Origin: a virus
Virus genome (UHGV): UHGV-1370141
Strand: one strand, 5' to 3'
DNA length: 64,000 bases
The notes beneath the pieces were generated by a model that ran no database searches, was not told the DNA's origin, and saw only the letters and a program-made list of their open reading frames with translations. Positions 4,824-48,675 of this stretch are shown here, one piece after another (within the stretch, counting starts at the first letter, position 1; each line of letters begins with the position of its first letter). The position numbers and the translations under genes were made by a program.

Positions 4824-4845
4824 GGTAGGATAATATCTATCTCAC
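4824..4845 (-). promoter_or_regulatory. recurrent promoter-like motif (coding strand GTGAGATAGATATTATCCTACC)
   Basis: About 30-40 nt upstream of the SD (AAAGGAG) of the beta-like gene; same motif recurs upstream of at least 7 other minus-strand genes. Coordinates approximate. Confidence 0.45.
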
Positions 4846-10022: not shown

Positions 10023-10045
10023 AAGATAAAATCTATCTAAGATAA
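10023..10045 (-). promoter_or_regulatory. recurrent promoter-like motif (coding strand TTAGATAGATTTTATC)
   Basis: Variant of the GATAGATATTATC motif immediately upstream of the 8360..10021 gene. Approximate. Confidence 0.35.
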
Positions 10046-13904: not shown

Positions 13905-14492
13905 TTAGCAGGACGCACCAAGTTCTGAACAGGGATCTTCATCTTCCCAGTCAAAACTTCGCATACGTGCCCAGTTAATCTGCATGTCAACTTGCTGAAC
14001 GCGAGTAAGTCGATTGGAGCGATCTTCGTTGGATACCCAGTTCCAGATACGATCCTCGTCGTACTCCGTTGACATACCTGACGTAACTTCACGATAGTTA
14101 TCGTCAGTGTGCATGTACGCCGAGCCTCGGAATCGGTCTACCTTAGAGTAACCGTTCTCAAAGCCCGTCGCCATGTTATTGTTGTAGAGCTGTCGGTATT
14201 CCGGCATTGCAATTAAGAACGGTTGTAACGCCTCATTCGCAAACTGGAATTGCCCGATAGTTTCAAGTTGTCTTACTACATTCGTTGCATCGCTATTTTG
14301 AACCTTACGCGCAGCTGCGTACATTTCGCGGAAACGTTGCAATGAGATCAGTTCATTACACTTCTGCTTCACGCGCTCAACCATATCCGGTGCGAAACTA
14401 GACAGGTTAAAGTTCTCTTTGAAATAACGATACATACCGCTATTTTCGTCTTGACGCTGCCAAATAGACCCGCCTAGATTCCACATGCCCAT
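13905..14492 (-). CDS. hypothetical protein
   Basis: 195-aa ORF. Confidence 0.5.
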   Translation of the reverse strand: MGMWNLGGSIWQRQDENSGMYRYFKENFNLSSFAPDMVERVKQKCNELISLQRFREMYAAARKVQNSDATNVVRQLETIGQFQFANEALQPFLIAMPEYRQLYNNNMATGFENGYSKVDRFRGSAYMHTDDNYREVTSGMSTEYDEDRIWNWVSNEDRSNRLTRVQQVDMQINWARMRSFDWEDEDPCSELGASC

Positions 14493-14738: not shown

Positions 14739-15088
14739 CTGTTTGTCCACTCCATTCCTTTTGGAGCAGGTGTGCAATGACACCCTCCCATGTTTTCACA
14801 TGGGCACAGACTATATCATAACCGTAGGTATTGCTACCCGTAGGTCTCCCCCACTTCGCCGCTAAACTAAGCAGCTACTCTACTCGGTTTTACCCTTTCG
14901 ATAGTCGTTGAACGATTTTCATCGCTGCTGGTTATCCATTATCACAACCCTTAGCATTATTGGTTAGCATAGGCTATCTTACGAATTGTTTCTGACTTTC
15001 GCCACCCTGTCGGGATCGTAAGCTTTAGGAGTTTCCAGCAATTCGAGGGATACGCACTAGAGGTTTCCCGTCTAGTGGGCCAAATTTT
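14739..15088 (-). ncRNA. group I self-splicing intron (ORF-less, about 350 nt) interrupting the RNAP beta'-like gene
   Basis: Separates ...KAPNA from DFDGDQ...; 5' exon ends in U, intron ends in G; contains P-like ACGGGAAAC, Q-like AUCCCGACAG, R-like GUUCAACGACUA and S-like GAUAUAGUCU elements with complementary GACUA/UAGUC (P7). Confidence 0.8.
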
Positions 15089-16456
15089 AGCATTCGGAGC
15101 TTTGATGACGCGATCGGAGATACGTAACGAACACTGTGTAACATCAGGGTTAACAGCTGAGATAAATAATGTCTGAATAGACAACTGTACAAGCGTCGGG
15201 TTTCGTAGCGCTGATATCATCAGGCCGTAACCGCCACGAGACTCCTTAATAAGTTCGTTGATAATTTCATGAACCAACGGTACGTACTGCATTGATGCAA
15301 ATGCAATAACACGTTCACACTGCCGTGGTGTGAAGTTCCGTCGACCGAGTTTGTTTTCAATAGCTACAGATTCTAACGTCACTAGCCAACGCCAAGGTGC
15401 AATAACCTTCATAGCGTCATGCGGTTCTGAGATTGGAGAGATTGTTACACGACCACCCCACGGGATGTGTGTTGAACCTAACTTGGCACGATAGAATCCA
15501 GGTTTACCTTCCATCACCTCCTGACGATGGTCAATATAGAAGTACGCTAACTGGCGATTTGCTTTTAATGCGCGACTAATAATGAAATGGGTTGGGATGC
15601 GTCGTGCATTAGTATAAAGTAACGCGATGTTCTTAACCGCGTCTATTGCACCGGTATAAACAGGATCGATAAAGATACCCTGACGTCGTTCCTCCGTAAC
15701 GATCAGTTTGGGTGAAATGATTGGAAGATGAACCGGAAAGAAAGTGTGTGATTGTTCTTCGAAGAACTTTTTCCACTCTAAGCGAGTACGTTCGCTCTCA
15801 TATCGGTTATTTTTCGTTGGTGGATAAATTTCTTTCCAGACTTCAGGAGAAGTTAAGATATTGAATATTGTTCGATGGTGGTCAATAAAATTCCTAATGC
15901 CGCGTGGAACTTGATACTCGCTAAAGATACGTTTGATTATTCGGGATCGAGTACCTTCGTCTTTATCAGGTTTATAGCACGGATCTAACATCCACATCAA
16001 TAAATCAGAACCACGTTCTACGGTCACTTTGTTTCGGTTAAACTTCTTAAGTTTAGAACCGAAGAAAGCGTTAAACATCGACCAGAATCGTGGGTTAATA
16101 AAGTTGCCTATTTCCTCCGGGGCACGAATCCAGACTTCTGAAACAATACGATGTTCTGTCACTACATAGCCGCAGGTAGGACATCGCATACCGAGATTAT
16201 ATCGATGAACGATAGGTGCTTCACAATCAATACTACAAATGGGTGCCGAATTTAGCGTCTCGTCGACTGTCCGGTTCTGTAAGATTCGGTTAATCAACTC
16301 TGACGTCTCAATGGTGTCTTTATATTTCGCAACATCATTGATAATCATCGGCGGTTTATAGCCCTTTTCCTCCGCCTCTTTGAAAGCGTCACGTAACATT
16401 TTATCGTGACTGATTAATCGCCCTGATACACCGAAGTATTGTAATCTGTCTTTCAC
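15089..16456 (-). CDS. RNA polymerase beta' N-terminal-like subunit, exon 1
   Basis: GFYRAKLGSTHIPWGGRVTISPI resembles [32 protein letters not shown] resembles NRAPTLHRLGIQ; Cys cluster CPTCGY near the N-terminus; exon ends ...RVIKAPNA immediately before the catalytic motif. Confidence 0.75.
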
Positions 16457-18504: not shown

Positions 18505-18530
18505 ATCACATAGATAATATCATTCTCAGA
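18505..18530 (-). promoter_or_regulatory. promoter-like motif copy 2 upstream of the 612-aa gene
   Basis: Coding strand CTGAGAATGATATTATCTATGTGATG; second tandem copy in the divergent intergenic region. Confidence 0.4.
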
Positions 18531-26179: not shown

Positions 26180-26203
26180 ATCACAGAGATAATATCTATA
26201 CGA
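26180..26203 (-). promoter_or_regulatory. recurrent promoter-like motif (coding strand CGTATAGATATTATCTCTGTGATG)
   Basis: About 30 nt upstream of the SD of the first gene of the small-gene array. Approximate. Confidence 0.4.
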
Positions 26204-28564: not shown

Positions 28565-28587
28565 CTCACTAAAATAATATCTATCTC
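28565..28587 (-). promoter_or_regulatory. recurrent promoter-like motif (coding strand GAGATAGATATTATTTTAGTGAG)
   Basis: About 50 nt upstream of the 28080..28520 start. Approximate. Confidence 0.45.
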
Positions 28588-29894: not shown

Positions 29895-30042
29895 TAACGT
29901 AAGTCCGAACTTAATCGGTAGGTGTTTACACGTTTTTAAGGAGCTTTCTACCCGTGAGCAAGAGCAGAAGTTATCAGAACAACCGACGCTCAGTTGAAGG
30001 CTGACGAGTTTGTAACTCTTGTTCGATTGCTCTAATCTGGGC

Positions 30043-30115
30043 GACCAATGGCAGGATTCGAACCTGCGAAATAACCGATTATTAGTCGGGTGTTAATTCC
30101 TCTAACTTCAATGGT
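30043..30115 (-). tRNA. tRNA-like element (about 73 nt; anticodon uncertain, possibly pseudo-tRNA)
   Basis: Perfect T-arm GCAGG-TTCGAAT-CCTGC, 7-bp acceptor stem with one mismatch, anticodon-like stem-loop CCGA-CTAATAA-TCGG; D-arm weak and no encoded CCA. Hand-folded only. Confidence 0.4.
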
Positions 30116-30124
30116 CTAAATCCA

Positions 30125-30625: not shown

Positions 30626-30969
30626 TATGGCGAACCCCAATCCATGATGAACGTAGCCATGCACTGCTCGGCGTGTTTCATGATAGCTTTGTGCAAGCAT
30701 CTCTGAACCGCTGAGAACAGGTAAGGCCGATAACACACATGCGACTCCTTGGGAGACGGGGTGTGAGTAACCAACTGACCATCGGTGAGTTTAACACAAA
30801 CCGTAACAAGCTCTGTGTTTCGCCAATGGTTCACTGACACTGTCTCGATGCAGTTTAGCAGCGACGAATCATAACAACCCCAATTCTCGGGCGCTTTTAG
30901 CAGCCTGCCCAATTCATCGAGTCGGTACGGGACATTCGAACCGATGTTCGGAACGTCTTTGGAATCCAT
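30625..30969 (-). CDS. hypothetical protein, translationally coupled to the HslV-like gene
   Basis: Track ORF 30625..31065 starts with GTG and no SD; ATG at 30969 (M33) is preceded by AGGAGA; its stop overlaps the HslV-like start (TAATG). Confidence 0.45.
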   Translation of the reverse strand: MDSKDVPNIGSNVPYRLDELGRLLKAPENWGCYDSSLLNCIETVSVNHWRNTELVTVCVKLTDGQLVTHTPSPKESHVCYRPYLFSAVQRCLHKAIMKHAEQCMATFIMDWGSP

Positions 30970-31619
30970 ATTAAAATCTCCTGCCGTGGTTTGTGTCACA
31001 CCAACAGGAAACTCTGTAAAAAATAATTCAGCTGCGTACCGGCGTTTCTCAACGGGAGTACGCACCCCTCTCGTCTTTGCGAGCCGTCAAGCTAGAGGAC
31101 ATCACACTGCCAGCGCTACCTGGAGCAGGGTTGTTTCGACGCAACGTCGTAATTCGGATTCTGGCCGCACCTCTGGGAGCGCATCCCACCGTCGGCTGCC
31201 CGCAGGTAAGTTCTACGGACCTCTCGCCAACGTCGCCCCCAGAGGCTGCCACGGTTCACTCGGATTTTCTCATGTCGGCCACGCGTCGCTGATAGCGCGG
31301 CTTCCCCCAAACTTCGTAAGTCGCGGGAACGGTACCGAGCACCTGAATTCGTGGGGTTTACCAACCCCTGAGGTTTTTATCCGAAGTCACGGAAACCCCA
31401 TAGTAAAACAAACCGCCAGTGTTAGGCCGAACGTTTTGTTTTTCCCAGCACACGGTGAACTAAAATCCATGCACTTGAAAAAACACCCCTGGCCAATAAC
31501 CAACCAGGGGGTTCGAGCTCTGCTGAATCATCGCAGACAGTAATCGTGTTGAGCTGTGAGCAGTAATACCTGAACTCCGAAAAATCTTCGTGGTTGTAAA
31601 TCAACCCCACGCAAATCCT

Positions 31620-31857
31620 CCGAACATACCATAGGGTTTTAACGTTCGGAAAAGGGGAATGGGGGTTTACCCCTTGGGTCAGGTGTTCAGGATCTCCCCG
31701 GAAGGGTAACCCCTACCCGATCCCCCAGGTGGGGATTTTACCCTGGCGAATTACCCCGGGTACGATTTTCGGTTTTTCCGGAAAATACCGCTCACCGATC
31801 CCCACCCCCTCACCGGGGGTCAGAGCGAGATCAGATCTCATAATAAGGATCGCGCGC
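31620..31857. repeat. G-tract / C-tract rich structured flank of the AT-rich core
   Basis: Runs such as ggggaatgggggtttacccc, ccccggaagggtaacccctacccgatcccccaggtgggg, ccccaccccctcaccggggg; non-coding. Confidence 0.4.
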
Positions 31858-32270
31858 GTTTTATATATATTTATATATAATATATATTATATATAATAAT
31901 TATATTATTAATATATTTATTTAATATATTTATATTTATTAAAATAAATATATATTAAAATATATAATTAAATAATACCAAAAGGTATTATTATTTTGAT
32001 CCTAAAGGAATAATATATTTATAAATAAATATATTATACTATACGTGTGCGCACGCACACGCGTATAAGGAAGAGATCTTGAGATCAGGTTTTTGAGAGA
32101 GTTAAATTTTTAAGATCGATCCGAGAGACTTGAGGTCTCTCGAGAGTATTTAAAAAACCAAGCAAGATAACTACTCAACTTGAATCTTCAGTGTGTGAAG
32201 ATTCAAAACGTTGATCCAATCACTTGATCCGTTAGTACGCGAAGCGTGAATGTTTTTTTGATCGGCACGG
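31825..32270. promoter_or_regulatory. GATC-dense, palindrome-rich region around the AT core (candidate replication origin / DNA unwinding element)
   Basis: About 11 GATC sites in about 440 bp (expected 1-2), including agatcagatct, agatcttgagatcag, agatcgatcc; palindromes cgagagac-ttgag-gtctctcg and gaatcttca-gtgtg-tgaagattc. Confidence 0.4.
31858..32045. repeat. about 185-bp almost pure A/T tract (TATA/TAAT-rich) bounded by alternating GC elements
   Basis: tttatatatatttatatataatatatattatatataat... bounded by gatcgcgcgcg on the left and gtgtgcgcacgcacacgcg on the right; extreme compositional outlier in a ~48% GC genome. Confidence 0.8.
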
Positions 32271-32659
32271 CGGCTGGCCGTCGGGTGGCAGGGTCGGGTC
32301 TCACCCACCCCCGGCAAGGGGTCGTACGCTTTCTCAATCGCTCCACATCGCGCTAAACGGGGTCAGGTAACCCAAGTGTACTGGGTAGGGGTAAAAACCG
32401 CGTTAAAATCGTTTCTAGAGCGTTTTACGAAATCCGGTTAAAAAATCACCAACCGGATAGGGTTTCCAGAGACAATCCAGCACCCGGTTTTGGGGTTTGT
32501 TGCGGTTTGGGTTAAAATAAATTCTTCGACAGGGAATAAAACCCCGTCAAATTCTTCCTGAGAAGCTCTCTAACGAGAAAAACTCACCCAGGGTATACGA
32601 ACGTACCACCTCGACCTAAAAATGCGTTAGAATCGCTCTGAGGAGGTCGAAGTTTTTTT

Positions 32660-32711
32660 GGCAAAAAAAAAATAAAAAAAAACAGGTGGCCGAAGCCACC
32701 CGATATTTTTT
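32660..32711. terminator. bidirectional rho-independent terminator
   Basis: Hairpin ggtggc-cgaa-gccacc flanked by an about 20-nt A-run and an 8-nt T-run; immediately downstream of the 32712 gene on the minus strand. Confidence 0.6.
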
Positions 32712-33836
32712 TTACGGACAGACCTGTTCTTTCTGAGGGTAGTGCAGTTTTACCTCCAACAGGCTGTAGCCCGTGGCGTAGAAAATCTGACTCCCCACTG
32801 AAGCCACAAAGCCTTCAGGGTCAATCACCTCAACGGAGAAATCCGATTCGAAAAGCCAGGTTTCTTGCTTACCGTCTCGTTCGAATACCGCTGCATAGCG
32901 ACCGTACTCCGCACCCCGTCGGAAGCGGAAAAGCGTTAACCCTGTTTCACGTTCGTAACCGGAAATCACACCCCCTTCCTCGAAAATCTCGGCACGGTTA
33001 CAGCGGGTAACGGTCAATAACGCCGGTCGTTGTGTTGGAATGGTTTTGAACGGGGAAGGCCCTTCGTATGTCGTTGAGACCCAGTCTCCCATGTTGTCCA
33101 GCGCTAACGCTCGGTATGCGATAGGGGACTTGTAATTACACAGCCGATTCCCTTCCGTGTACATCGTGTATTCGATACGTAACGTCGTACCGACGATGTC
33201 TTCCAGGGAAAGTTTGTAGTGTTCTAACTGTGCCTGAATACGTCGTGAGAGTATCGTGCACAGGAAGGTGTGTCCTTCGGAAGAACGACAAACGATTCCG
33301 TAATCCGTTACGGCCAAAAGCGTCGCATCGGTTTTACGGACAGGTTCTAATCGGAATGTGTGTTCACCCGTTTCGATGATAAACTGGGAAACGGCTTGGT
33401 TACGGGATTTGACTTTAATCATGTCAAATACGTCACCGGCTTTTACGATTAATGGCTCAACAACGTTCACCTGGAAAGGCAAGGGTTTCGTGGGATACTG
33501 GCCTAGTGTGGTAATCGTTACCGAACTGAGTTCGGGGTCTGATGCGTCAGGGTCACTAGACAGCCAGTACGTTAACCACTTAGACAGCGTTTGTGGGATA
33601 ACACGGGTGGTGTAAAATAACACCTCGCCTTGTAACCCTGCTTCCGCCAGTTCTCGTGCTAAGAACGAGTTGACGGCGTCGTAAGTACCGTTACGCAGGA
33701 TGTCCATCCCACCGACTCTGTCCAGGTCACAAATCACGCCGTGAGGAAGCACCCACATCTTGACTTGTTGTTCGCGGTCGATGGTACCTTCACGCAACAT
33801 CTTGTGCCAAGCAGGTTTGCGCAGATAATTTCTCAT
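32712..33836 (-). CDS. hypothetical protein
   Basis: Track ORF 32712..33869 trimmed to the ATG at 33836 (M12), which is preceded by AAAGGAG; promoter motif upstream. Confidence 0.55.
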   Translation of the reverse strand: MRNYLRKPAWHKMLREGTIDREQQVKMWVLPHGVICDLDRVGGMDILRNGTYDAVNSFLARELAEAGLQGEVLFYTTRVIPQTLSKWLTYWLSSDPDASDPELSSVTITTLGQYPTKPLPFQVNVVEPLIVKAGDVFDMIKVKSRNQAVSQFIIETGEHTFRLEPVRKTDATLLAVTDYGIVCRSSEGHTFLCTILSRRIQAQLEHYKLSLEDIVGTTLRIEYTMYTEGNRLCNYKSPIAYRALALDNMGDWVSTTYEGPSPFKTIPTQRPALLTVTRCNRAEIFEEGGVISGYERETGLTLFRFRRGAEYGRYAAVFERDGKQETWLFESDFSVEVIDPEGFVASVGSQIFYATGYSLLEVKLHYPQKEQVCP

Positions 33837-33863
33837 GGTAAAAACTCCTTTAGGTAATAAGAC

Positions 33864-33888
33864 TCTCACTAGGATAATATCTATCCGT
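33864..33888 (-). promoter_or_regulatory. recurrent promoter-like motif (coding strand CGGATAGATATTATCCTAGTGAGAG)
   Basis: About 25 nt upstream of the SD of the 32712..33836 gene, in a divergent intergenic region. Approximate. Confidence 0.45.
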
Positions 33889-35341: not shown

Positions 35342-35581
35342 TCAATGGGCCCCGGATACCGCTAATAGGTGGATGGTGTACACCAAGTTTAGAGCGTAAG
35401 TCGTTGATGTCCCTGCCACCATTAATCCGAATACTGCTACCGCCTGCGCATACCGCGTCGTACGATGACACACACCGTGCGATGCACCGTATCGTTCTAT
35501 CGATTGGTAACTGTGTCTAATCATTTTGTACGTCGCGATCCACGAAAAGAACACGAGCAAATAGTAAATTGGAGCCATCAC
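35342..35581 (-). CDS. small hydrophobic (probably membrane) protein
   Basis: 79 aa with two hydrophobic segments (IYYLLVFFSWIATY, AVAVFGLMVAGTSTTYALNLVYTIHLLAV); start overlaps the terminase stop (ATGA). Confidence 0.4.
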   Translation of the reverse strand: MMAPIYYLLVFFSWIATYKMIRHSYQSIERYGASHGVCHRTTRYAQAVAVFGLMVAGTSTTYALNLVYTIHLLAVSGAH

Positions 35582-37686
35582 TTCATCCTCTGGCGTTGGA
35601 GAAGCTCTCTCAAGCTTTCCATTGACGCCACGTTTTGTGTATCAGTGTTAAGTTGAGAGATGAGGGCCTGAAGTCGGTTACGAGCGGCCATTGCTTGAAC
35701 CGGGTCGAGTAACCCGTGAGTCGTTCTCACTAACTGCTCAATTTCCCCCATCAGTTTTTGCTGTCGCGCTTCCTCTTCGAGCTGTAACTCTTCGTCCACC
35801 CCTTCCCGGTTTTCTGCCAAGTTACGATTACGCATCATCAATCGGCTGTTGTTGATCTCGTAATGTCCTAAGTTATTCCCAAGTAGCAATAACCACATCG
35901 CAAGTAACCAAGAAATCACAAGGTCATCGTGACCGGATGCTTTGTGGTCGATACGACCATTTTTCTCCACGAGGTTAAGAATTTGGTCGATGAGCTCTCC
36001 ACAACGGAGTTTATCGGCAGACAAGCGCAACGCGGTGGTGAATACCTCACCGTACAGTTTACGACGTTTCTCCTGGTCGGTTGAGAACCCGATGTATTTG
36101 CGGAATTTATTCCAGAATTTCTCTGCGCTCCCCACTGGGCCACGGTGATACTCTTTGTAGAGATCGTCCGTACGCGAGTAGTCCTGGGTGATTCGCACAA
36201 ACAAACGACGGTGTAAATCGGGTACCCGTGATTGCAATTGCAGGATAACCGCATCTGCAACGGATGAGCCTGTTGAGCGTCGTTCCAGAATCAGTACCGT
36301 GTTCGGATATCGCACCATAAAATCCGCTAAATGGATCGCGAACGAAATAACGTTGGATTCATTAACGGTAAGCTTACCGGCGTACTCGGCCGTGACTGAG
36401 TTGACGATGGACATGGCGATCGCATCTCGACCTACGGCTTCGGAGGTATCCAAACCGATGACATGACGATCTTTGAGTTTCATCATCATTTCTTCTTCGG
36501 TGTAGTACCAGTCGGTAACGTAGTTTTGTGGCGAGATATCTTTGAACACTGCACGCATTCGTGAAGCATTCATACGATCTGCATCTTCCGCTGAGAACGG
36601 CTTGTTCAGACCACCGGTCGTCCATTCGCCACCGAAGTCACGACGGATCTGGTCAGGGGTACCTTTGGCGTTCGCAATCATTGCCGCTAACTGTTCATCT
36701 GTGGTCCCGAGCTGACGGTGGTTGTACTTCACGTAGAACATGATACGTGGGACTTCTGCCGTGGAGTTAGAACGGATGATGTCAATGAGCTGTTTACGGG
36801 TTGGAATGTCGATATAGCGCTCATCCCACATAATCCCTGACGTCATCAGCTCGTACATGTACTTGCCTTCTTCCGTCGCTAAGTCACCAGGGGTTGTTGC
36901 GAATACGTTACCGTAAGGAACACCTTCCGCTTCGTTAATACGACGTGCCGCTGTACCGGATGCCAGCGCTGCCGGTAGAATGTGGTGTACGTTTTTGGTA
37001 AAGGGGCCTTCGTCCGAGAACAGACGACCAGCAGTAAGTCCACGACCGATACCGTTAGCGGACTCTGGGTCGTTTTGGCCGATACCTGTAATCAGTTTAT
37101 TACCCTGAGCTAAACACGCAAAGGTTTCTCGGTTATCTGGGTCATCAGGATGCGCTGGCCAGAGGTAACTCGGTAAACCGTTACGAAGTTGTTTCAGTTT
37201 GTTGATAGTTTCTTCACGCAGTGCCGGGCCTTTTGTGATAAGAATTGTTCGGGAGTTTTCTAAGAAACGAATCAACCACAGCAGTAAACCACTCATCCCG
37301 ACGGTTTTACCGTGCTGACGCAAGAACTCGACAGCAACGTCGATGTTGTTAAAGAAAATCCAGTACATCGAGAAGTTACCACGGTCGATACGGAACGGGG
37401 AACCGTACTTCATACCGTCCGCAGGCACCCTGACACATTCCCTGAACCAGTACCACGGGTTCTCAGCACATTCGATGGCGATGTATGCCTTCATCTGTTC
37501 TGAAAGGTTTTCATCGAACGGGTCTACGCCCTGCAACAGTGGGTTATGCAACGCCAGGTGAATATACCAGTGTTTGACACCCAGTTTTTTCAGTAAGTTA
37601 GCAAACTTGATAAAGGATTTGTTTGTTGTTTTATCGTCAACAATAGCGCCTGGATAATAACGCCAGTCCGATTCACGTAGTATCAT
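35578..37686 (-). CDS. terminase large subunit
   Basis: Deviant Walker A LRQHGKTVGMSG as in T4 gp17 (SRQLGKT); nuclease-domain-like IGLDTSEAVGRDAIAMSIV; 702 aa. Confidence 0.6.
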   Translation of the reverse strand: MILRESDWRYYPGAIVDDKTTNKSFIKFANLLKKLGVKHWYIHLALHNPLLQGVDPFDENLSEQMKAYIAIECAENPWYWFRECVRVPADGMKYGSPFRIDRGNFSMYWIFFNNIDVAVEFLRQHGKTVGMSGLLLWLIRFLENSRTILITKGPALREETINKLKQLRNGLPSYLWPAHPDDPDNRETFACLAQGNKLITGIGQNDPESANGIGRGLTAGRLFSDEGPFTKNVHHILPAALASGTAARRINEAEGVPYGNVFATTPGDLATEEGKYMYELMTSGIMWDERYIDIPTRKQLIDIIRSNSTAEVPRIMFYVKYNHRQLGTTDEQLAAMIANAKGTPDQIRRDFGGEWTTGGLNKPFSAEDADRMNASRMRAVFKDISPQNYVTDWYYTEEEMMMKLKDRHVIGLDTSEAVGRDAIAMSIVNSVTAEYAGKLTVNESNVISFAIHLADFMVRYPNTVLILERRSTGSSVADAVILQLQSRVPDLHRRLFVRITQDYSRTDDLYKEYHRGPVGSAEKFWNKFRKYIGFSTDQEKRRKLYGEVFTTALRLSADKLRCGELIDQILNLVEKNGRIDHKASGHDDLVISWLLAMWLLLLGNNLGHYEINNSRLMMRNRNLAENREGVDEELQLEEEARQQKLMGEIEQLVRTTHGLLDPVQAMAARNRLQALISQLNTDTQNVASMESLRELLQRQRMK

Positions 37687-48650: not shown

Positions 48651-48675
48651 CTCACCTAAGTAATATATATCTAAG
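48651..48675 (-). promoter_or_regulatory. recurrent promoter-like motif (coding strand CTTAGATATATATTACTTAGGTGAG)
   Basis: About 50 nt upstream of the 48210..48599 start. Approximate. Confidence 0.4.

Follow-up and report, generated by a model that had tools for sequence, protein, structure and literature searches.

A conserved non-coding module with an A/T core in SPN3US-like jumbo phages, a candidate replication origin

Introduction

Where do jumbo phages of the SPN3US type begin to replicate their genomes? The literature on this phage family describes neither an origin nor a packaging site (PMC13282480), and for nucleus-forming jumbo phages there is no described initiator either and no hint from the GC skew (PMC12625630, PMC13282480). 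The question is raised here by a stretch of 64,000 nucleotides from the virus genome UHGV-1370141 (in the following: the window), which contains a non-coding module with a nearly pure A/T core, a dense cluster of GATC sites and alternating GC-rich tracts. We tentatively regard this module as a single-copy cis-acting DNA element of the SPN3US-like nucleus-forming jumbo phages that most likely serves as a replication origin, or as one of them, or as an unwinding element, and this reading is favoured among several that are weighed below. No paper mentioning the locus was found in a literature search, and it may have escaped annotation because the start of SPN3US-type records splits the gap between the two ends of the file. 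The start of replication can now be tested at one conserved candidate in the genetically tractable phage SPN3US, and if the candidate is indeed an origin, it would provide a handle for the engineering of jumbo-phage replicons.

The phage of the window is an SPN3US/phiEaH2-like jumbo phage, with genes for a divergent family B DNA polymerase (PF20286), a T4-like large terminase, and virion proteins of the phiKZ-related jumbo-phage type. Its closest cultured relatives are the Erwinia phages phiEaH2, Stratton and Asesino, followed by the Salmonella phage SPN3US, and the protein flanking the module is 57-63% identical to its counterparts in these phages. The window is contained in the IMG/VR contig 3300045988_078609 (224,831 bp). 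A near-identity DNA search against the phages in GenBank gave no match, and a search for distant similarity matched the core region only.

The A/T core and its frame

The core, which is 93% A/T, consists of 88 A, 87 T, 6 C and 7 G (13 G or C) and contains pure A/T runs of 119 nt (31859-31977) and 30 nt (32009-32038), whereas the longest such run elsewhere in the window has 14 nt. It is the only place within the 64 kb at which a 100-bp window reaches at least 85% A/T, and its nearest-neighbour duplex stability lies 8.8 standard deviations (sd) below the window mean, as compared to 3.6 sd for the runner-up site. Tandem Repeats Finder describes it as a degenerate (TA)n array. The GATC sites around it number 14 in 31691-32263, with a peak of 12 per 500 bp versus about 1.3 expected (the window mean is 2.6 per kb), and all other 500-bp windows of the 64 kb have at most 6. 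On its left side the core is bordered by the GC element gcgcgcg, and on its right side by the tract TATACGTGTGCGCACGCACACGCGTATA, which with 28 nt is the longest alternating purine/pyrimidine run of the window (the next has 16 nt) and may act as a GC clamp. The original prediction, made from the sequence of the window, had described the A/T tract at 31858-32045, about 11 GATC sites in about 440 bp, bounding alternating GC elements and several perfect palindromes, and this description agrees with what has been found: the GATC estimate was roughly right, and four palindromes were read (at 31826-31838, 31971-31992, 32123-32141 and 32181-32205). The locus is also non-coding as predicted, but the proposed extent of 31600-32700 was too small. 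An open reading frame (ORF) of 199 aa at 30944-31543 on the plus strand is regarded as spurious, as it has no Pfam or PHROG match and no homologues and overlaps a conserved RNA of the minus strand, and the left-hand minus-strand gene begins with an ATG at 30969 that is preceded by an AGGAGA ribosome-binding site, so that the non-coding gap spans 30970-32711. A search for tRNA and tmRNA genes in this gap found none. The syntenic non-coding gaps of SPLA1a, phiEaH2, pEa_SNUABM_29 and SPAsTU are 1.1-1.75 kb long, and that of Caitlin exceeds the end of its record.

The boundaries of the core carry short motifs that are related to each other. The left one was found in the form AAGGATC[AG][CT]GCG in all ten loci of a first round, and the pattern GATCTCNTAATAAGGATC from the left boundary was used to retrieve homologous loci from IMG/VR. 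Inside the core, the TCCT and AGGA of GATCCTAAAGGA form an inverted repeat and mirror the AGGATC of the left boundary, and this motif, which occupies columns 1-12 of alignment A1, is invariant apart from its spacer. At the right boundary, TATAAGGAAG is a direct repeat of the ATAAGGA on the left. Two other interpretations of these boundaries were rejected. The TAAGGA resembles the family's ribosome-binding site TTAAGGAG, yet is not followed by a conserved start codon or ORF. A resemblance of the tract TATACGCGCG...CGCGTATA to protelomerase target sites, considered without a search for a protelomerase, was set aside because the genomes are reported to be circularly permuted and assemblies cross the site.

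Table 1. Features of the non-coding module and its surroundings (positions in the window; an empty strand cell means that no strand is assigned)
Feature	Position	Strand	Basis or remark
Conserved non-coding module, 1742 nt	30970-32711		ORF lists and sequence
Conserved structured RNA, about 500 nt, 10 helices	31020-31528	minus	RNAalifold, 13 sequences
Lineage-specific spacer with G and C tracts	31560-31825		Repeat search (families D1, D3)
Left boundary: palindrome GAGATC-A-GATCTC (31826-31838), conserved TAATAAGGATC, (CG)4 clamp	31826-31857		Contains 3 GATC
A/T core, candidate DNA unwinding element, 188 nt	31858-32045		93% A/T, least stable duplex of the window
Core palindrome AATAATACC-AAAA-GGTATTATT	31971-31992		Candidate site for a dimeric DNA-binding protein
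GATCCTAAAGGA, copy of the conserved GATCCTnnAGGA motif	31998-32009		Present in 17/17 loci
Alternating purine/pyrimidine GC-rich tract TATACGTGTGCGCACGCACACGCGTATA, 28 nt	32040-32067		Z-DNA-prone, nearly palindromic
Right boundary: TATAAGGAAG, then GAGATCT-TGAGATCA	32064-32090		CGCG-T(A/C)TAA(G/T)(G/A)GAA conserved
Hairpin/palindrome GAGAGAC-TTGAG-GTCTCTC	32123-32141		Read in the sequence
10-bp hairpin TGAATCTTCA-GTGTG-TGAAGATTCA	32181-32205		Columns 46-53 pair with 60-67
Covarying hairpin TACGC-GAA-GCGTG, then conserved TGATCG and a GC-rich stretch	32236-32248		
Conserved ACCCAAGTGTACTGGGT hairpin	32370-32386		Nearly invariant in alignment A1
Two GGTTAAAA motifs (at 32436 and 32510)	32436-32517		Relatives have 1-3 copies of (T)GGTTAAAAAGTGTACAA
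Bidirectional intrinsic terminator: A run, hairpin 32683-32702, T run	32663-32714		Terminator-like site on both strands
Early gene phrog_8136, 385 aa, ATP-dependent DNA-ligase-like fold	32712-33869	minus	Right flank of the module
Family promoter sites	4830-4842, 10026-10038, 18514-18526, 26189-26201, 28574-28586, 33874-33886, 48660-48672	minus	

Conservation and uniqueness

The conservation of the module was assessed with 17 homologous loci from at least seven lineages, namely Seoulvirus, Erskinevirus, Machinavirus, Wellington-like phages and metagenomic lineages. All 17 loci keep the order of the elements, between the HslV-like/tRNA operon and the phrog_8136 gene: (GATC)n, TAATAAGGATC, the CG clamp, an A/T core of 79-147 nt, GATCC(C)TnnAGGA (GATCCTnnAGGA), the alternating GC tract, and T(A/C)TAA(G/T)GAA (TATAAGGAA). 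The alternating runs have 15-28 nt in 15 of the loci, and each core holds one or two short palindromes, which read ATACC-TAAA-GGTAT in the SPN3US and SPLA1a lineages and elsewhere ATATC-TAAA-GATAT (twice) or ATCCC-TAC-GGGAT. The boundary motifs are nearly invariant throughout, although the flanking protein is just 41-63% identical. As the core drifts in sequence and length within a nearly invariant frame, selection therefore appears to act on the composition of the core and on the sequence of its edges. Judged from its sequence, such a layout fits a DNA unwinding element that is framed by putative protein-binding sites. Outside of this frame the spacer left of the core is unalignable between genera; in the window it carries palindromes of the type GGGG-N3-4-ACCCC at 3-4 sites (31660-31673, 31730-31743, 31744-31757) and two copies of CCGATCCCC.

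In the complete genome of SPN3US (240 kb), 80% A/T per 100 bp is reached at the locus alone, and so is a density of seven or more GATC per 600 bp. The duplex instability of the SPN3US core amounts to 8.6 sd, the next sites in the window and in SPN3US reaching 3.6-4.6 sd, and no GC-rich alternating tract of that genome is longer than the one at the locus (23 nt). A single copy would be expected of an origin or a packaging site, whereas promoters recur, with about 27 early promoters in SPN3US.

It had also been considered that the locus could be an assembly junction or the boundary of a terminal repeat. Three metagenomic contigs do break at the core, and the gap contains the start of GenBank records of the group, with the SPN3US core at bp 109-205 of its record. 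The same architecture has, however, been assembled independently from cultured phages and metagenomes of at least seven lineages, in which flanks and synteny are conserved. The flanks were not seen to be repeated, and the core is crossed by four metagenomic contigs as well as by all examined cultured-phage assemblies that have no record ends in the gap. The simplest reading of the contig breaks is an assembly drop-out in a long pure A/T repeat, and the SPFM isolates have been described as circularly permuted (PMC6614189). An assembly artefact, chimeric junction or terminal-repeat boundary is thus highly improbable.

A possible replication origin

If the module is an origin, its near-pure A/T core would be the point at which the duplex opens, and the alternating GC-rich tracts on both sides would limit the spread of the melting and could also absorb negative supercoiling. 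The ATAAGGA on both sides, the AGGATC and GATCCTnnAGGA motifs and the palindromes within the core are putative sites for a phage protein that would position the replication machinery. A phage Dam would methylate the GATC sites in and around these motifs, and the methylation state could mark whether the site has been replicated or not yet. Transcription of the flanking non-coding RNA may help to open the core by way of supercoiling. An origin is favoured because the A/T content of the core is constrained and not its sequence, because the GC borders fit a delimited bubble, and because the group is reported to package its DNA by headful cutting that is independent of sequence (PMC5694885).

The methylase that this mechanism would use is present in the relatives. 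SPN3US gp161 is a Dam-family methylase (TIGR00571 with 241 bits versus a cut-off of 115; PF02086), and each GenBank lineage with the locus has a homologue in a conserved position. As the locus-bearing lineages encode Dam, their GATC sites can be expected to be methylatable by a phage enzyme. In the window phage's own genome Dam is unconfirmed, the peptide-pattern search used for it reaching just close relatives of the SPN3US enzyme. Of the predicted regulation of the GATC cluster by Dam and SeqA, the Dam part is thus plausible, but SeqA is a host protein for which no possible replacement was found.

Several known origins can be compared. The origin of Escherichia coli, oriC, likewise has an easily melted A/T region beside a dense GATC cluster, is present in a single copy and has Dam available, but the phage locus is without DnaA boxes, without a 13-mer/9-mer organisation and without a switch of the GC skew, and its core is three to four times longer than the unwinding element of oriC and is flanked by GC clamps. 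Phage T4 oriF and oriG and the primary origin of T7 consist of a promoter followed by an A/T-rich unwinding element and are RNA-primed. The locus is similar to them in having no dedicated initiator, in the position of the A/T element by a transcribed non-coding sequence, and in the T4-like replication and packaging enzymes of the phage; it differs in that no recognisable family promoter directs into the core and the supported RNA reads away from it. With iteron origins such as the phage lambda ori and plasmid oriV it shares the A/T region beside short repeats (the 3-4 GGGG-N3-4-ACCCC sites on the left), but these are lineage-specific and palindromic rather than direct repeats, and there is no initiator gene that overlaps or adjoins the locus.

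A number of points weigh against an origin. The oriC-type organisation that had been predicted is contradicted by a search for DnaA boxes (TTATNCACA, at most one mismatch): none of the 56 matches of the window lies within 30970-32711, and 56 near-matches compare with a chance expectation of 56.2. No initiator gene was identified, and the neighbours of the locus encode no initiator-like protein. Direct-repeat iterons that are conserved between lineages were not found, nor were at least three direct repeats of 17-22 bp beside the A/T region, where only short palindromic, lineage-specific sites of 14 nt occur. The iteron-like motifs of the original prediction correspond to GGTTAAAA, which with two copies in the locus is too rare for an iteron or for a genome-wide promoter, and SPN3US has six GGTTAAAAA, two of them in the locus. 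A cumulative GC-skew analysis had been proposed as a check, with the lack of a skew switch as a refutation. Over the whole SPN3US genome the curve tracks gene orientation and does not turn at the locus; this test has little power, since the phages of the SPN3US group are reported to be generally without a replication-type GC skew (PMC12625630). The number of GATC sites decreases from 14 in the window's lineage to 4-5 in the loci of Caitlin and ChrisDB, and a GATC cluster is therefore not obligatory. The outgroup phage EarlPhillipIV (Derbicusvirus) has no such core at the syntenic position, and by comparison with this outgroup the element in its present form is restricted to the SPN3US-like clade. 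Finally, T4-like phages can replicate mostly via recombination, and a strong unique origin is not needed for that.

Two observations belong to these comparisons. The syntenic gap of EarlPhillipIV (L060, 13440-13940) has 495 nt and a different design, with two AAGGGGGGAT repeats followed by a nearly C-free stretch of 76% A/T. Within the window, the slope of the skew changes near 32-33 kb without a switch of sign: the left part (1-31000) has a GC content of about 0.45 and a skew near -0.08, and the right part (33000-59000) a GC content of about 0.49 and a skew near 0. The genes are mostly on the minus strand on both sides, and this step may reflect the class of the genes (replication and transcription versus structural) rather than replication.

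A possible packaging site instead

The features that the module shares with the pac site of phage P1 suggest another function. In P1, GATC hexamers flank the cleavage region, and cleavage depends on methylation, for which P1 encodes its own Dam. The locus could accordingly be a Dam-controlled pac site, at which the terminase would read the flanking motifs and place the first cut in or near the core, with GATC methylation timing the cut. As in P1, groups of GATC stand on both sides of a central region, the site is single in the genome, Dam is encoded by the phages in all locus-bearing lineages, and the gene of the large terminase (35578-37686) is only 2.9 kb away. Also the ends of metagenomic contigs could be read in this way, as three IMG/VR contigs stop inside or at the core, and one of 220,786 bp has its start some 30 nt to the left of the core and its end at the core's right edge.

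The details differ from P1, however. The P1-type context TGATCA/G is found at only one of the 14 GATC (TGATCG at 32260), the others having A, G or C before the site (AGATC, GGATC, CGATC) or a C after it, and the centre is an A/T tract with a length varying between 79 and 147 nt, which fits a cleavage site poorly. The terminase resembles T4 gp17, and the group, from which a small terminase subunit is not known, has been described as T4-like headful packagers with circularly permuted genomes (PMC5694885, PMC6614189, PMC6256631). The 21 SPFM isolates assembled from Illumina reads have their sequences opened at numerous positions, the window's 224,831-bp contig and three others cross the core, and contig breaks in a pure A/T, low-complexity run of 119 nt are expected from assembly alone. 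A pac site is a serious rival, though of rather low probability, and an origin remains the preferred reading.

Transcription and the structured RNA

The left flank of the module contains a conserved structured RNA, for which RNAalifold with 13 sequences predicts 65 pairs in its 10 helices, 27 of them with compensatory changes. Of the alignment cells, 95.8% are paired versus 85.0% in column shuffles, and none of 500 shuffles reaches 95.8%; slid controls of the alignment have 38-45% paired and at most 11 covarying pairs. The strand is evident from conserved G-U pairs at many positions of the minus strand, which on the plus strand would give A-C mismatches. This left block exceeds the neighbouring proteins in conservation, and the lengths of its indels are not multiples of three. 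The RNA reads away from the core, toward the HslV-like/tRNA operon. A search of the locus with Rfam, including GOLLD, ROOL, tmRNA, RNase P and group I introns, gave no match at gathering level, and at E-values up to 5 the best hits had 13-18 bits and belonged to unrelated families. It was found in 15 IMG/VR stretches and in one misbinned fragment among 185,579 genomes, and it is confined to SPN3US-like jumbo phages. By its covariation, the RNA is a new, well-supported phage RNA family, and it merits study whatever the role of the core. It resembles GOLLD and ROOL in being a large (about 500 nt) multi-helix phage RNA in one transcription unit with a tRNA gene, but differs in its lack of an Rfam match and its restriction to the SPN3US-like jumbo phages. 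A hairpin at 31486-31510 was rejected as a minus-strand terminator, as its T run pairs within helix 2 of the RNA and it is more likely a part of the fold. A bacterial origin of the RNA was rejected as well, the sole match among the 185,579 genomes being a near-identical phage fragment in a Bacillota metagenome-assembled genome. This 13.7-kb GenBank entry (JAEWFE010000254.1, 'Bacillota bacterium MAG') contains a near-identical copy of the locus and is almost certainly a misbinned phage fragment.

A structured RNA directly left of the core, on a strand that reads away from it, would fit a locus that serves transcription control only, with the core being a shared upstream element of outward promoters and no role in replication or packaging. 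The products of such a hub would be the minus-strand RNA together with the HslV-like/tRNA operon on the left, and on the right a non-coding RNA of the plus strand, with its end at the bidirectional terminator. Plus-strand transcription toward this terminator is implied by its bidirectionality, and outward -10-like hexamers are found at the boundaries (TATAAG/TATAAT on the right, TTATTA on the minus strand on the left), followed on the right by a hairpin in most lineages. In addition, the left operon needs a promoter after the terminator, and there is no early-type promoter between 33886 and 28586.

The promoters of the family themselves speak against this. The derived family promoter, aAAAnnTTTc-AGATAGATATTAT-CTnaGT-G, occurs about 27 times in SPN3US, always on the coding strand, and has 11 matches in the window versus 0.93 expected, with 9 of the 10 minus-strand matches looking real. 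Its AGATAGATATTAT-6N-G parallels the early promoter of phage AR9, AAATATATATTAT-6N-G, which is used by the virion RNA polymerase (PMC5312081). This sole recognisable promoter class of the family is absent from 30970-32711 at up to two mismatches, and the best AGATAGATATTAT match inside the core has three mismatches, which include the G and C positions. The -10-like hexamers are not conserved as sigma-70 elements (variants are GTAAAG and CTAATA) and have no conserved -35; sigma-70 promoter matches within the core were discounted, since they are trivial in such an A/T-rich sequence. A promoter would also leave unexplained why 240 kb contain a lone A/T tract, with alternating GC tracts and palindromes in the core, and folding the right block as a whole gave no supported structure for the plus or the minus strand (-13.7 and -14.7 kcal/mol for 32144-32476). 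Transcription control as the only function is a serious rival, but a doubtful one. The transcription and origin readings can also go together, because transcription running outward at the two borders would supercoil the core negatively. An origin that combined all of this, i.e. an initiator-independent, GC-clamped A/T unwinding origin that is licensed by Dam and in which the adjacent RNA (about 500 nt) would help to start replication or to control its start, acting for instance as primer precursor, regulator or scaffold, is quite unlikely in this specific form. A second variant of the promoter, AGATATATATTAC-ctaGGTGAG, was noticed alongside the first.

The locus may also be a single-copy DNA site of another kind, such as a tether or recognition site used within the phage nucleus, or a place where nicking or recombination is frequent. 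Its uniqueness and conservation would suit such a site, and no feature that would define it as a known class of origin, pac site or promoter was found. There is no positive evidence for this explanation, to our knowledge it has no precedent in the family, and it is unlikely; the replication origin is retained as the preferred, if tentative, reading.

The right block and the gene neighbourhood

Right of the core, the block 32046-32711 consists of conserved sequence blocks and three covarying local hairpins and ends in the bidirectional terminator, for which an equivalent hairpin is found in relatives. The hairpin at 32123-32141 is replaced in relatives by others (ATCCCC-TAAG-GGGGAT, CCGGCC-TTAAG-GGCCGG, GCCAGC-TGGAG-GCTGGC). 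In the 10-bp hairpin at 32181-32205, five of eight pairs have changes on both sides, and the helix is recovered on the opposite strand too; all of its pairs are Watson-Crick pairs and so fit either strand. The hairpin at 32236-32248 (columns 101-104 with 108-111) has AU/GC/CG exchanges, and that of ACCCAAGTGTACTGGGT could form two additional G-U pairs on the minus strand only.

The module lies between an operon with a 114-aa ORF, an HslV-like gene and tRNA on the left and the DNA-ligase-like early gene on the right, both of which are on the minus strand, and the early-type promoter of the latter gene is the one at 33874-33886. The DNA polymerase gene is located 10 kb to the left. Both the early gene, with its promoter and ligase-like fold, and the proximity of the polymerase gene count in favour of an origin. 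In the left operon, a tRNA-Ile with the unusual anticodon AAT was called at 30040-30116 (minus strand), whereas the syntenic tRNA of relatives is tRNA-Trp(CCA). In the Wellington-type lineage the RNA region is apparently interrupted by an additional segment of about 0.5 kb, after which the conserved blocks 'ctgccacgg...cctgaa...cgaaaaag' resume; this segment, possibly an insertion into the RNA gene, was seen in L033 (the Wellington copy) and L038, about 450-950 nt right of CCCCTCTCGTCT. Farther away, a group I intron (Rfam RF00028, 63.7 bits) is found at 14787-15099 on the minus strand between the ORFs 13905-14492 and 14957-16456, where it probably splits a gene.

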